NCBI RefSeq assembly: GCF_014280195.1
Contig: NZ_CP047960.1
Location: 390,001 to 422,000, forward strand
Length of the DNA: 32,000 nucleotides
Reading direction: 5' to 3'
Origin: Synechococcus sp. A15-24
GTDB taxonomy: Bacteria > Cyanobacteriota > Cyanobacteriia > PCC-6307 > Cyanobiaceae
The notes under the pieces were generated by a model that made no database searches, was not told the origin of the DNA, and was given only the letters and a program-made list of their open reading frames with translations. The translations under genes and the position numbers were made by a program. This document shows positions 20,163 through 24,878 of this stretch, one piece after another. Numbering within the stretch: the first letter of the stretch is position 1; every line of letters begins with the position of its first letter.

Positions 20163-20462
20163 ATGGCCCGCTTCTTGATCAATTGGTGCGCCCCAGATCC
20201 CACCAACGAGAAGTACACGCAGGCGATCGTTGACTACATCAAAGGCGGAAAGCCTATGGATGAGTACGCGGGCTTCAAGGTGTTGGCACGTCAGATCCAC
20301 CCTCACCTCGGTGGTGGCTGTCTTTTGGTAGAGGCCGACAACCTCGTAACAGTCCAGAAACACACTTACCCCTGGACCAAGGGTCTCGGCGTTACCGCGA
20401 CGATTACTCCTGGTCTCAGCGATGAGGAGTATGTCGAGCTTGAAGAGAGCATGAGCAGCTGA
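20163..20462 (+). CDS. DUF3303-like small alpha/beta protein (divergent third paralog)
   Basis: MARFLINW...FKVLARQIHPHLGGGCLLVEADNLVTVQKHTYPWTKGLGVTATITPGLSDEE follows the same core pattern as 11361..11678. Confidence 0.6.
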   Translation: MARFLINWCAPDPTNEKYTQAIVDYIKGGKPMDEYAGFKVLARQIHPHLGGGCLLVEADNLVTVQKHTYPWTKGLGVTATITPGLSDEEYVELEESMSS

Positions 20463-20493
20463 CCTCGTGACTCACATTTGTCCGAGGGTCTGA
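20458..20493 (+). pseudogene. orphan 3' end of a DUF3104 gene (ADLVTHICPRV*)
   Basis: 33 nt (20461-20493) repeat 20047-20079 with 4 differences, all synonymous in the DUF3104 frame. Confidence 0.7.
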
Positions 20494-20559
20494 CAGCCCC
20501 TTCTATCGGCTGGGCTGACTCTCTGCAGCCTTACCGAAGCAATGATGTGGGGCGGCGGA

Positions 20560-20815
20560 ACCGCGAGGAGAACGCTGTTCTCCCCGAGCGATGCGGTGTC
20601 TGCATTCACAAGCTCGTACTGATATATAGCTGTGCATCAAATGCACTAACTCTTTTCAGGTTTATGGCACAGAACGGTGTCTCCCGCGATCGCTCACGCA
20701 GGAGACGTGTTCTGTCAGCTCTCGGATCGCTCTACCGAGGCTGCCGCGAGTGGAAGAAGGACCCCATCACCGCGTTGCACAAATATGGGGTCGAGCGGAT
20801 CAGCTGGCAACACTT
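20560..20815 (+). other. conserved non-coding structured element, copy 1 (candidate RNA or protein-binding DNA)
   Basis: It aligns with 23836-24090. Features are the palindrome GAGAAC-GCT-GTTCTC (20568-20582), a 7+6-bp interrupted stem (20669-20715) enclosing HIP1 GCGATCGC, and the hairpin CTCGG-N9-CCGAG (20721-20739). Confidence 0.45.
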
Positions 20816-21015
20816 CTCCCGAGGTTTTTTGGGATCAACAAAATCTTCCGTGAACTTTTATTTTCTTGTATCTCAGACTACCGACGGACCGCACAGTCAA
20901 CAAATATTGCCTCCCACCACCACAGCACACACACAAACTGCTCGAGCGTTTCTTTGATGGTATGAATTTGATCCTGATTTTCTTTGTCGATCACACCCTG
21001 CCTTGAGACGAAAAA

Positions 21016-21183
21016 TTAGGCAGCGGCTTGGTTTTCGGAATTTGCAAGTTCCTCCTGCAATATCTTTATTTTGCGTAAAATAGGTCCACAATGCTCACAG
21101 GCATGAGGATCTGGAGGTAGAAATCCCTCTCGATAAAGCATTGAGCGATAGATCTCGATCTGTTCTTGTAGATGCCAATTCAA
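21016..21183 (-). CDS. CxxC mini-protein P2, copy 1 (unlisted ORF)
   Basis: Hand translation gives (M)NWHLQEQIEIYRSMLYREGFLPPDPHACEHCGPILRKIKILQEELANSENQAAA. A TTG start is assumed. It is conserved with 24362..24538. Confidence 0.55.
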   Translation of the reverse strand: MNWHLQEQIEIYRSMLYREGFLPPDPHACEHCGPILRKIKILQEELANSENQAAA

Positions 21184-21274
21184 AATACATTAGAGCAGGT
21201 ATAGCAACTGTGTCGAATTCTCCGGCATTTAGTGTATCAGGCCTGAGCAATGTGCGGAACTCAACAACATAAAC

Positions 21275-21292
21275 TGTGTTCTTTGTCACACA
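21275..21292. promoter_or_regulatory. inverted repeat TGTGT-N8-ACACA upstream of P2 copy 1 (operator candidate)
   Basis: This is the counterpart of the perfect 7-bp inverted repeat at 24831-24850. It lies in the conserved right end of the module. Confidence 0.3.
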
Positions 21293-21595
21293 TTGATCAC
21301 GTTGGGCGCCGCCCCACCTCGATCTGGTCTTGGGGGTGGCCTAATTGACCAGCTTTTCATCGATACCGTGTTCGCGAGCGCATTCGACGTTGTCGCTCGT
21401 ATCACTCATGCACTGCCCATAACCCTTCCATTGCTCAGAAAAAAGCCCGGTGCAGTTCCTACAATTACTAGAAGACGACGCATAGAGGTAATGGTGGTAG
21501 TCATCGTTTCGAGGCCTCGGTCTACCTTAGTAGTACTGATCTGACGTTATCGAGAACAAAACTTCTATCGACATGTCTGTGGTCTTAAACATCGA

Positions 21596-21811
21596 TCATG
21601 ATTGACGTTCCAGATTCAGCAGACTGCGCCTGGCTTGAGCGTCCTCTTGCTTTGCCTCTTCTGCCTCAGCGCGTAGAAAACGCTTTCTTTGAGCGGACTC
21701 ATAGCCACTTAGGTCTGGCTGCTTTTCCTCGGCTGGTTTGGGCTTTGGCTTGAGAACTGGCTTGGTCTTATCCAAACCCATCAAAAGTGGGTGGATTCCT
21801 CTGCGACTCAT
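21596..21811 (-). CDS. hypothetical Lys/Glu-rich small protein
   Basis: 71-aa ORF. No motif recognised. Confidence 0.3.
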   Translation of the reverse strand: MSRRGIHPLLMGLDKTKPVLKPKPKPAEEKQPDLSGYESAQRKRFLRAEAEEAKQEDAQARRSLLNLERQS

Positions 21812-22173
21812 TTGTTTGATTTGCTACGTGGTTGTCGCGACGTGATCTTCCTGACCCAATCGGACCAGTAGATCATGTTGAATGCATATTTGAATCGTGG
21901 TATTGATGAAGACATTTGAAGACAACTGGCGACTGCTTTGCGTTTGGGGCTCGGTTGATGGCTTGGCTCTGCTCTCTCTGGTGCTGGTCCACCACTGTTT
22001 TTGGAGGATCTTGAACGCTTCGGATGTATCCGAGAGGCGTCTGAACCTTCCCGCGGTCATCTAGGTCGAGTGGGATAAGACTCTCCGCTAGCCGTAGCCA
22101 CTACTGTCTTGATCGACCTGGTGGCGACCTAAGTCAAAACCCTCTAAAAACCCAATACAGGTTCGGTGTAGCA

Positions 22174-22347
22174 ATGGCTCTTCCCAAGTGGGACACCATG
22201 ACTGACGAGAGTCAGGCAATGGTCAAGAAGGTCGGCCTCATCGGTGGTGGAGGCCTCCTCCTGCTTGCCTTCAGCAAGATGCTTATACCTCTGGCCCTGC
22301 TCGGCGGAGGTAGCTACGTCGCCTGGCGTGCCCTCAACAAGAAGTAG
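22174..22347 (+). CDS. 57-aa membrane mini-protein (unlisted)
   Basis: MALPKWDTMTDESQAMVKKVGLIGGGGLLLLAFSKMLIPLALLGGGSYVAWRALNKK. Confidence 0.4.
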   Translation: MALPKWDTMTDESQAMVKKVGLIGGGGLLLLAFSKMLIPLALLGGGSYVAWRALNKK

Positions 22348-22352
22348 GGGGC

Positions 22353-23321: not shown

Positions 23322-23410
23322 CGTTAGTGAGGAAAAATCTCACGGGTTGGAAACAAGGACACAACCCCGTGCCGTTTCGGAACCCCTGCCTTTGGCGGGG
23401 GTTTCTTTTT
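23322..23410 (+). ncRNA. candidate Yfr2-family-like sRNA
   Basis: Hairpin GTGAG-GAAAAAT-CTCAC (23327-23343). Hairpin CACGGG...CCCGTG with GGAAACA in the loop (23349-23355). An intrinsic terminator follows. Confidence 0.4.
23383..23410 (+). terminator. Rho-independent terminator
   Basis: CCCC(T)GCC-TTT-GGCGGGG stem followed by GTTTCTTTTT. Confidence 0.7.
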
Positions 23411-23725
23411 GAACTCAGTTATCCACAAGGTCAGTGGATCCAAATCTTGCCTGGGGCTCGCAAAAGCCGCTCATGGCACCATCCCTAGTGCTTTAGGGCA
23501 CAAAAAAACCCGGTGTGACTCGCACAACGGGCTGGGTGATGGGGGAAACCTAAATATGGCTCAGTCACTTCATGATGGCTAGCCCCACATGTGGTGTCGT
23601 CAAAGTCGGTACAGAACTTCACTACACAATTGAGGAAATCAGTTCCAGGTGGCACAAATGAGTCCAACGCGGTTAGTTTTGTCGAGTCCGGCCGGGTGAT
23701 GGGGATCAGCCGAAAGGATTGATGA

Positions 23726-23754
23726 CCTCGGAGATCTCTCCGGGGTTTCTTTTT
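23726..23754 (+). terminator. Rho-independent terminator
   Basis: An 8-bp stem (CCTCGGAG / CTCCGGGG) with an ATCT loop, followed by TTTCTTTTT. Confidence 0.65.
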
Positions 23755-23835
23755 GGCCGCCTCAGTCGCCGATGTCGATCCAGGCAGCACCCTCCAGGGC
23801 CTTACGGCTCATAAGGGAGGGGGGCTACTGAGGCC

Positions 23836-24090
23836 CCGCGAGAAGAACGCTGTTCTCCCCGATCGATGCGACCATCGGTACAACCAAGTTCGCCGCGCTA
23901 TTGAACTTCTCAGCGAACGCACCAGGTCTTTTCAGGATTCCATTGCACAGAACGGTGTCTCCCACGATCGCTCACGCAGGAGACGTGTTCTGTCAGCTCT
24001 CGGATCGCTCTTCCGAGGCCGTCGCGTGTGGATGAACTCCCCATGTCCGCGCAAAGCAAATATGGAGCCGAGCCGCGTGTTCGGCAACAG
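23836..24090 (+). other. conserved non-coding structured element, copy 2
   Basis: Same blocks as 20560-20815: AGAAC-GCT-GTTCT (23844-23856) and the interrupted 13-bp stem (23947-23993). Confidence 0.45.
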
Positions 24091-24361
24091 TCTTTTGGTC
24101 ATTTTTTGATTCCAGAAAATCTCCCATGAAGCCCTATGAATTTGGTATGGGAGGACACAGACAACAGGACGCTCATCCTGCAAGTCACCCTTCACGACTT
24201 ACTTCTCATAAGGTCTGATGATTTGGGTTATCAGCTGTGCCCAACCGACAAGCCTAAATCACCATGGGCGTTCCACCCTCGATTTGTTCCATGACTGAAC
24301 TGTTGGCACGGATCTGATCCTGGTGTTTCTTGTCGATCACGCCCTGGCTTGAGACGAAAAA

Positions 24362-24538
24362 TTAGGCAGCGGTTTGATTTTCGGAACTTGCAAATTCCAT
24401 CTGCAATATCTCTATTTTTCGCAAAATAGGTCCACAATGCTCGCAGGCGTGAGGATCTGGAGGTAGAAATACCTCTCGATAGAGCATCGATCGATAGATC
24501 TCGATCTGCTCAATTAGGAAATTGCGATAGGAACTCAC
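24362..24538 (-). CDS. CxxC mini-protein P2, copy 2 (unlisted ORF)
   Basis: (V/M)SSYRNFLIEQIEIYRSMLYREVFLPPDPHACEHCGPILRKIEILQMEFASSENQTAA. The GTG start lies 9 nt after the P1 stop. Against copy 1, the 32 codons EQIEIY..ILRK show 8 synonymous and 1 non-synonymous difference. Confidence 0.65.
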   Translation of the reverse strand: MSSYRNFLIEQIEIYRSMLYREVFLPPDPHACEHCGPILRKIEILQMEFASSENQTAA

Positions 24539-24547
24539 ATCACACTC

Positions 24548-24784
24548 CTAATCGTACTGCACGTAATGCCGAGAAGGTCTGGCAAAACGCAGTTCACGTT
24601 CCTCCATCTGACGCTGAATACTCATCAGACGGTGATAAGCCGACTTACAACGTGGGCATTCACAAGGAATGCCACATTCTTCAAGCTGACGAAAGGCAAT
24701 CATTGCTTGCTTATGCTCTTTAAGCGAATATTCAGCCACCGCAAGTAAGGCGGAGAACAAACGAATAATGCACAAAAGCTGCAA
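24548..24784 (-). CDS. Cys-rich mini-protein P1 (CGIPCECPRC)
   Basis: 78-aa listed ORF; the real start may be the internal GTG before AEYSLKEHK. Its architecture is helix-CxC..C-helix, like P2. It is absent from module copy 1. Confidence 0.5.
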   Translation of the reverse strand: MQLLCIIRLFSALLAVAEYSLKEHKQAMIAFRQLEECGIPCECPRCKSAYHRLMSIQRQMEERELRFARPSRHYVQYD

Positions 24785-24830
24785 ATTTTTCTGTACCAGT
24801 CAGACAATGTCCTGAATTCAACAATTCAAA

Positions 24831-24850
24831 CTGTGTGCTTTGTCACACAG
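24831..24850. promoter_or_regulatory. perfect 7-bp inverted repeat CTGTGTG-N6-CACACAG upstream of the P1-P2 operon
   Basis: Read directly. It lies about 50-65 bp upstream of the P1 start on the minus strand. Confidence 0.35.
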
Positions 24851-24878
24851 CGATCACGTCGGGCGGACCAACCAAGGC

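Follow-up and report, generated by a model that had tools for sequence, protein, structure and literature searches.

The structured RNA Cyano-2 is known from marine Synechococcus (Weinberg et al. 2010, PMC2864571); it has GCGA loops and a conserved bulge, is built of two structured regions, and unusually lacks annotated genes in the ~1 kb upstream of it (supplement to PMC2864571). Its seed alignment (PMC2864571) contains multi-copy genomes, including copies 2.9 kb apart in WH8102, and three copies on one Global Ocean Sampling (GOS) scaffold. The tycheposons of Prochlorococcus, in turn, use seven tRNA or transfer-messenger RNA (tmRNA) sites, among them Ser-TGA, Pro-TGG, Arg-TCT and tmRNA; their tandem elements are split by partial tRNAs, degenerate remnants lie across islands, and some members resemble phage-inducible chromosomal islands (PICI-like) and carry terS (Hackl et al., bioRxiv 10.1101/2020.12.28.424599). 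Tycheposon-like insertions have also been described in Synechococcus (Grebert et al. 2022, PMC8995045). Both systems bear on the locus studied here, a 32,000-nt stretch of the genome of Synechococcus sp. A15-24 (contig NZ_CP047960.1, positions 390,001 to 422,000; called the window below) that holds two copies of a short composite sequence: a conserved non-coding element, a mini-protein gene (P2) and an end block, joined in copy 2 by a further mini-protein gene (P1). A sequence-only reading had suggested that these copies, without obvious annotation, could be a small mobile or recombination unit, or else a regulatory RNA/protein pair.

We find that the region is an ordinary island mosaic around a known small RNA (sRNA), and not a new kind of jumping unit. 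The conserved element is a Cyano-2 gene, and we think it likely that the copies are Cyano-2 genes joined to truncated relics of a tycheposon- or PICI-like operon (the tail of an upstream gene, U, with P1 and P2), which accumulated by integration and decay and were reassorted by homologous recombination. The likeness to published Cyano-2 extends to three hairpins, GAGCGA-type loops and a conserved bulge, as well as to the marine Synechococcus host, the multiple copies and the unannotated upstream DNA. The RNA itself is the same; what is added here is a predicted promoter, a ~36-nt leader, ~140 nt of upstream conservation and a 3' hairpin domain, and the gene-free upstream kilobase proves able to hold the unannotated small genes P1 and P2. 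The window resembles tycheposons and PICI-like elements in that its island starts at a tmRNA gene and holds a partial tRNA, a putative primase/helicase-type gene and scattered degenerate fragments; related loci carry Prim-Pol, a VapE-like gene, a putatively TerS-like gene and a tyrosine integrase, and the tRNA sites involved match the published list. Unlike tycheposons, however, the window consists of relics only, without an integrase or a definable att pair, and its host is Synechococcus, not Prochlorococcus; gene content suggests that its intact relatives are elements of the tycheposon type.

The Cyano-2 gene in both copies

Comparison of the window with itself gives two copies in direct orientation, 3.3 kb apart, each with three homologous blocks in identical order (copy 1 versus copy 2; BLAST E-values of 1e-13 to 1e-71 for the block pairs):

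20561-20796 versus 23836-24073, Cyano-2 block, 78% identity over 239 nt (93% in a 95-nt core)
20955-21165 versus 24301-24511, P2 gene and 60 nt past its stop, 87% identity
21248-21308 versus 24805-24865, end block, 84% identity

With three blocks aligned at 78-87%, the proposal of two direct copies with a common block order stands. So do the restriction of P1 to copy 2 and the position of the copies on either side of a tRNA fragment (22601-22665; Rfam) and an intact DUF3104 gene (22788-23036; Pfam PF11302). Homology spans 20561-21308 in copy 1 and 23836-24865 in copy 2; the left ends first proposed, 20461 and 23770, take in unrelated sequence. A DUF3104 remnant had been counted as part of both copies and lies beside copy 1 only (20457-20493). 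The DNA between the blocks cannot be aligned, and unrelated spacer makes up about one third of each copy.

What had been called the conserved non-coding element is Cyano-2 (RF01702), an RNA gene present at full length. The features of the two genes are listed here; homologous loci in other genomes and in metagenomic contigs carry L numbers:

20548..20745, minus strand, Cyano-2 copy 1 (Rfam model extent); cmscan RF01702, 194.7 bits, model positions 1-204 of 204
23820..24023, minus strand, Cyano-2 copy 2 (Rfam model extent); cmscan RF01702, 167.4 bits, model positions 1-204 of 204
20782..20810, minus strand, predicted sigma-70-type promoter of copy 1; TTGCCA-17-CATATT, ~36 nt upstream of the Rfam start
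24059..24087, minus strand, predicted promoter of copy 2; TTGCCG-17-CATATT, aligning with the copy 1 promoter and other loci (coordinates counted by hand)
20494..20547, minus strand, 3' hairpin domain of copy 1, type A, outside the Rfam model; conserved in L007, L003, L012, L027, L002, L044 and L045

Both scores compare with a gathering score of 40 bits for RF01702. All three Rfam hairpins reappear in an RNAalifold consensus built from 15 copies (window, genomes and metagenomes), in which 19 of 45 pairs change on both sides. We also aligned 21 distinct copies from the same sources and compared the upstream regions over 20 loci. The -10 element (CATATT and variants) is fixed in position across these 20 loci and is preceded in most copies, at a distance of 17 nt, by a TTGCCN -35 element, the spacer being variable among loci; a consensus promoter scan of 20300-25200 picks one promoter-like site, 20810-20782. 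Such conservation points to a promoter, upstream of which another ~140 nt are conserved. The 3' hairpin domain comes in two types, by which the two window copies differ. Inspected by eye, it shows compensatory changes (TCGG/CCGA versus CAGG/CCTG; CCCC/GGGG versus CTCC/GGAG), and in L012 it is followed by a TTTTTT run; RNAalifold returned only its outer closing stem, with one-sided changes only. Cyano-2 is probably an independent RNA gene of ~300 nt with its own promoter and 3' hairpin. The portion of the Hou et al. tables covered here gives no published transcription start site near the Cyano-2 loci of strain CC9605.

An identity with Yfr103, an abundant multi-copy non-coding RNA of ~300 nt in marine picocyanobacteria (Hou et al. 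2016, PMC5069720), was considered and rejected. Both RNAs are structured, ~300 nt long and multi-copy in marine Synechococcus, and both have their own promoter (predicted for Cyano-2). In CC9605 (NC_007516.1), however, the seven Yfr103 genes (520334, 523173, 745088, 946997, 1038850, 1437033 and 2396025) do not overlap the five Cyano-2 seeds (534921, 913565, 1290872, 1429118 and 1587566), and Cyano-2 is therefore not Yfr103. A kissing interaction of the GAGCGAU loops with the AUCGCUC bulge was likewise dismissed: both are near-invariant, and the variant bulges of window copy 2 and L007 are uncompensated. Relatives of Cyano-2 were found in Synechococcus A15-28, MU1642 and PH41509, in single-cell genomes and in metagenome-assembled genomes, while searches of IMG/VR with Cyano-2 and end-block patterns gave no true matches.

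On the strand opposite Cyano-2 copy 2, and ~440 nt away from it, there is a second RNA motif, Cyano-1. The match is borderline in the window; Cyano-1 also occurs beside Cyano-2 in L032, L042, L048, L061 and L007, with better scores (43-58 bits).

23321..23382, plus strand, Cyano-1 RNA motif (RF01701), 42.2 bits against a gathering score of 41
23379-23405, plus strand, terminator-like hairpin 3' of Cyano-1

P2, P1 and the intact operon

P2 lies upstream of Cyano-2 on the same strand. It had been called convergent, which is right relative to DUF3104 and wrong relative to the conserved element, itself a minus-strand RNA gene. The open reading frames (ORFs) and end blocks of this part of the copies are:

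21016..21183, minus strand, P2 copy 1, 55 aa with a TTG start; ORF 86% identical to copy 2
24362..24538, minus strand, P2 copy 2, 58 aa with a GTG start
24548..24703, minus strand, P1 (copy 2 only), 51 aa from ATG; the longest ORF reaches 24784
21248..21308, minus strand, end block of copy 1; 21308-21286 is the tail of the putatively TerS-like gene with its stop (..APNVINV, stop), the rest intergenic or 5' region of P2
24805..24865, minus strand, end block of copy 2; 24865-24843 is the tail of the putatively TerS-like gene (..PPDVIAV, stop), the rest the 5' region of P1-P2
24879..25031, minus strand, o50, a compact homologue of o55 and o53 (o96); tblastn matches in L041, L042, L045, L046, L048 and L051

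P1 and P2 are real small protein genes, as their patterns of variation show. Among 15 distinct 49-codon alleles of P2, the variable columns are distributed 14/15/38 over the three codon positions, the pattern of a protein-coding gene. In P1, the distribution is 3/3/9 over codons 28-78 and 6/7/5 over codons 1-27, so that only the 51-aa part looks coding; this part is 100% identical to the hypothetical protein SynA1524_00464 of A15-24, a 51-aa product. As read from the sequence, P2 copy 2 has an AGGAG 6 nt ahead of its GTG start, and this motif shares bases with the stop codon of P1. The P2 family is small and has next to no annotation: a search of 1.84 billion proteins yielded 30 representatives at 50% identity, and at 90% identity there are 11 clusters, of which one is named, the hypothetical protein SynA1528_01713, 91% identical to P2 copy 2. 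P1 and P2 are not paralogues (hhalign probability 1.9%).

The AlphaFold2 model of P2 copy 2 is a plain helical hairpin (average pLDDT, the score of the predicted local distance difference test, 85.5), for which the fold search returned generic helical hairpins only, with E above 2. A zinc-binding or CxxC protein, as the mini-protein had been named, does not fit the family: L012 has ARKHC, L061 has no Cys, and many of the 30 representatives lack one or both cysteines. Neither Pfam nor PHROG gave a match for P1 or P2; among the small ORFs of the region, Pfam recognised DUF3104 and DUF3303 only, not o50, and PADLOC found no defence, toxin-antitoxin or retron gene in P1, P2, o50 or the other small ORFs. 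The earlier statement that the module has no obvious annotation falls for the conserved element, the published Cyano-2.

Some P2 alleles contain in-frame stops. A TGA at the first Cys codon occurs in L042 (2412-2585), L043 (620-793) and L048 (2760-2906), in an allele identical in three metagenomes of different projects, and another allele has a TAA (L052, 4593-4745); the rest of the frame is intact in both. These are most likely nonsense alleles, and the gene would therefore be dispensable in some lineages. A distant P2-family gene (71 aa, from a 64-sequence cluster) was found at L064 (8001-8872), 370 nt from a tmRNA 3' end and pointing toward the tmRNA. It adjoins RlmL and SMC, with DUF3104 nearby, and the chromosomal site is that of the window island.

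The end block had been read as the inverted-repeat end of a unit, and to examine it we aligned the upstream regions of P2 from 23 loci. The 5' part of the end block (CGCCCAACGTGATCAATGTGTGA), 23 nt long, is where an upstream gene, U, ends: it comprises the final codons and the stop. In less decayed loci U is a 148-aa ORF ending in ..GGPVLDV and a stop. The indels that separate end blocks from the intact U stop region are 3 and 6 nt long, multiples of three as expected of coding sequence. In L061, a locus of a 2.2-Mb genome contig, the end block coincides with the stop codon of U and the spacer between U and P1. The intact order, found in L055-L059 and L061, is o156, U, end block, P1 (in some loci), P2, o55 and o53, followed by a convergent tyrosine integrase; in L061, o55 and o53 are fused as o96. 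The end block therefore is an internal segment of an operon and not a terminus. The palindrome TGTGT-N8-ACACA, on which the supposed inverted-repeat end was based, is confined to one end-block subfamily, has no mirror image at the other end of the copy and is not preserved among more distant relatives. A CRP-type operator (TGTGA-N6-ACACA) was discarded as a candidate, the palindrome being missing from more distant end blocks.

What U encodes may be told from its model, a helix-turn-helix-like N terminus followed by a long helical hairpin. The top Foldseek matches are small terminases (2ao9, PaP3, E217, NV1 and Sf6; E from 0.014 to ~1.6), with probabilities of 0.98-1.0 for 2ao9 and PaP3 and of 0.30-0.85 for the others. 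Together with a weak PHROG terS match, the model suggests that U is TerS-like; a profile search of PDB sequences with U returned nothing informative. Near U, L063 carries Prim-Pol, a VapE-like gene and an integrase fragment. A phage origin was considered and rejected: besides the negative IMG/VR searches, no match in 50,697 phage records was obtained by blastn of copy 2 or tblastn of U.

Upstream of copy 2, o50 shows two-segment similarity to o96 of L061, the gene that follows P2 in the intact operon. Its frame, as read from the sequence, continues through its TGA into the TerS-like tail (24843-25031), which suggests that the o50/U-tail boundary may be a deletion junction between tandem elements.

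Island context and reassortment of the blocks

In Synechococcus A15-28 (L032), DNA homologous to the window is part of an island and has an integrase for a neighbour. Two segments correspond, L032 9406-10702 to window 25132-23836 (93.9%) and L032 10468-14822 to window 20794-16442 (97.2%), and these matches overlap within Cyano-2. In a sliding comparison, the A15-28 copy agrees at 96-100% with window copy 2 as far as the 95-nt Cyano-2 core and at 96-100% with copy 1 from there on, as expected of a product of crossover between the two window copies. A change of type falls inside P2 in L042, and a third mosaic is seen in L045. With crossovers located in Cyano-2 and in P2, homologous recombination is indicated. 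The DNA that separates the copies in the window is located elsewhere in A15-28, in changed order; a single-step circle excision and reintegration linking the two arrangements was tried and fitted inexactly.

The blocks are not restricted to this genome, P2 and Cyano-2 recurring in other genomes and metagenomic contigs, nor do they travel as a set. Among 19 metagenomic P2 loci, 8 have Cyano-2 on the same strand, 250-450 nt downstream, and 2 more have it in convergent orientation; a P2 homologue is present at 1 of 7 Cyano-2 loci found independently in genomes. The contigs of the five intact integrase-linked operons (L055-L059) hold no Cyano-2, and in L061 it is 5 kb away; overall, P2 and Cyano-2 occur apart as often as together. 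DUF3104 and Cyano-2 stand tail to tail in ~7 of 22 copies. The blocks thus occur separately and in differing combinations, none an obligatory partner of another. The DUF3104 genes of the window are:

22788-23036, plus strand, intact DUF3104 gene between the copies; Pfam PF11302, 67.6 bits, E=7.4e-19, cut-off 27
19825-20079, second DUF3104 gene; Pfam, 54.6 bits, cut-off 27
20457-20493, plus strand, DUF3104 3'-end remnant (last ~12 codons and stop), directly abutting the 3' end of Cyano-2 copy 1

The DUF3104 3' end forms a three-copy direct repeat (20043-20079, 20457-20493 and 23000-23036). Two of these 37-nt repeats (20043-20079 and 20457-20493) bracket a DUF3303 gene (20118-20462) whose stop codon lies within the second; in L017, DUF3104 and Cyano-2 are tail to tail without DUF3303. 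Such an arrangement suggests an insertion or a fusion where the DUF3104 gene ends.

The window passes from high-GC core genes (SMC-like and RlmL-like) to a tmRNA gene and then to a low-GC stretch that runs to its end, GC falling from ~0.64 to ~0.48 after 11 kb. Its tRNA- and element-related features are:

9003..9290, plus strand, tmRNA gene at the island start; Rfam 304.1 bits, ARAGORN
9942..11126, plus strand, AAA_25 / primase-helicase-like ORF beside the tmRNA; Pfam AAA_25 E=3.7e-21, PHROG DNA primase/helicase E=1.5e-13
22601..22665, minus strand, partial tRNA, by inspection tRNA-Arg(TCT); Rfam tRNA 20.7 bits, below threshold

The tmRNA and the primase-helicase-like ORF probably represent the proximal portion of a mobile element located at the tmRNA. 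The partial tRNA-Arg(TCT) is likely an att relic; it is 95% identical to a partial tRNA of A15-28 (29.5 bits), and a 37-nt 3' piece of it also lies ~350 nt upstream of P2 in L049 and L052. Other P2 or Cyano-2 loci adjoin tRNA-Ser(TGA) (L045, L046 and L049) or tRNA-Pro(TGG) (L002).

The island contains further repeats: a direct repeat of ~380 nt, 2.15 kb apart (11222-11601 versus 13373-13753, 78-94%), a tandem 70-mer at 15459-15598, and a 153-nt inverted repeat, 92% identical and 13 kb apart (16367-16519 versus 29739-29891), which also matches the end of an A15-28 homology block. Glutamine-II riboswitch (Downstream-peptide) motifs occur within a few kb of Cyano-2 or P2 in the same islands (L002 7331-7390, L027 7391-7450, L055 5125-5183, L061 1926-1984 and 6747-6805).

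Origin of the copies and its meaning

In the explanation we favour, each copy would be a junction of two independent minus-strand things, a Cyano-2 gene and, upstream of it, a truncated operon piece. This piece would stem from the integrase-proximal part of a tRNA/tmRNA-targeting element and comprise the last codons of U, the intergenic region, P1 (copy 2 only) and P2. Related elements may have entered tRNA/tmRNA-seeded islands repeatedly and decayed after integration, and homologous recombination between the surviving blocks, Cyano-2 and P2, would then have reassorted the flanking DNA. The outcome would be two diverged paralogous copies here and other arrangements in other strains; this order of events is our reconstruction. 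Several points weigh against it. By tblastn, the 32-kb window contains no integrase or integrase fragment; the integrase is found beside P2 homologues elsewhere, and the window therefore holds at most a decayed fragment and no element. The window shows the tmRNA 3' end only once, so that element boundaries cannot be drawn here, and the partial tRNA is of the Arg type whereas the island begins at tmRNA. The scores behind the TerS-like assignment of U are weak (Foldseek E of ~0.01-0.1, TM 0.35-0.5), and the one-step model tried for the rearrangements between the window and A15-28 fits inexactly. Finally, Cyano-2 lies 250-450 nt from P2 in 10 of the 19 metagenomic loci, in several junction types, which leaves room for a function and not only for shared residence in islands.

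This last point leads to a rival, a co-selected RNA-protein module of a mobile element made up of Cyano-2 and P2, with or without P1, in which adjacency would be functional. The same spacing recurs in A15-28 and in the two window copies, the junction architectures number at least four (two spacer types, convergent, and Cyano-2 upstream of the U tail), and no terminator-like site was found between P2 and Cyano-2. We nevertheless judge a functional module unlikely: the intact operons of L055-L059 and L061 have Cyano-2 nowhere on the contig or 5 kb off, six of the seven independently found Cyano-2 loci have no P2 homologue, Cyano-2 appears to have a conserved promoter of its own, and nonsense alleles of P2 occur in widespread populations. 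The same-strand cases, moreover, all involve close P2 alleles (at least 82% identity) and may therefore trace to few ancestral junctions. A simple segmental duplication within this genome would account for two direct copies 3.3 kb apart with equal block order, yet the copies differ by 13-22%, their spacers are unrelated, and each type has much nearer relatives elsewhere. The RNA region of copy 1 is 99% identical to L042 and L043, and copy 2 is 94-99% identical to A15-28, L041 and L060; with the two window copies only 78-87% identical to each other, a recent local duplication is excluded. Both types are older than this genome, and nearby direct Cyano-2 copies are also present in WH8102 and on GOS scaffolds, so that we regard this origin as very unlikely.

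The idea that the copies are small non-autonomous mobile elements, cassettes or relatives of miniature inverted-repeat transposable elements (MITEs), with the inverted-repeat block and the DUF3104 remnant as ends and moving between islands, is largely refuted, and we give it next to no credence. Like MITEs and insertion sequence derivatives, the copies are short, repeated and free of a transposase; their block order recurs in L041, L044 and L045-L048, and homology to three left-hand contexts starts at nearly one point, CGCCCRACGTG. Unlike MITEs, the region has no terminal inverted repeats, target-site duplications or shared pair of ends. When one end is compared with the other in reverse complement, no common word exceeds 5-6 nt, and no inverted pair joins the ends; the 20-nt flanks, whichever boundaries are chosen, share a direct word of 0-4 nt at most. 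One supposed end is internal to the operon in L055-L059 and L061, and its palindrome is not kept by more distant relatives; the other end is unlike between the copies, a DUF3104 tail standing beside copy 1 only and the 3' domains of the RNA differing in type. The spacers are unrelated, and the blocks reassort independently. What remains of the proposed mobile or recombination unit is that its blocks recur in several islands and recombine; a discrete element is not among the findings.

An apparent unannotated mobile module is thereby replaced by a mundane reading: a known sRNA family and the relics of integrase-borne elements, mixed by homologous recombination. What is new is modest. Cyano-2 receives fuller gene boundaries, probably ~300 nt, with a predicted promoter and a 3' hairpin missing from the Rfam model. 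P1 and P2 receive a genomic home, a conserved operon that, in island elements of Synechococcus, stands between a putatively TerS-like gene and a tyrosine integrase, and the supposedly gene-free DNA upstream of some Cyano-2 copies encodes real, mostly unannotated mini-proteins. It is conceivable, although in our view quite unlikely, that Cyano-2 and P2, with or without P1, act jointly in PICI-like elements of the tycheposon type, in the control of induction or packaging or in interference with cyanophages; if true, this would be the first functional handle on an sRNA orphaned since 2010. The U-P1-P2 operon offers a starting point for defining tycheposon-like elements in Synechococcus, and repeated sRNA genes such as Cyano-2 act as portable homology that reshuffles island content among strains.

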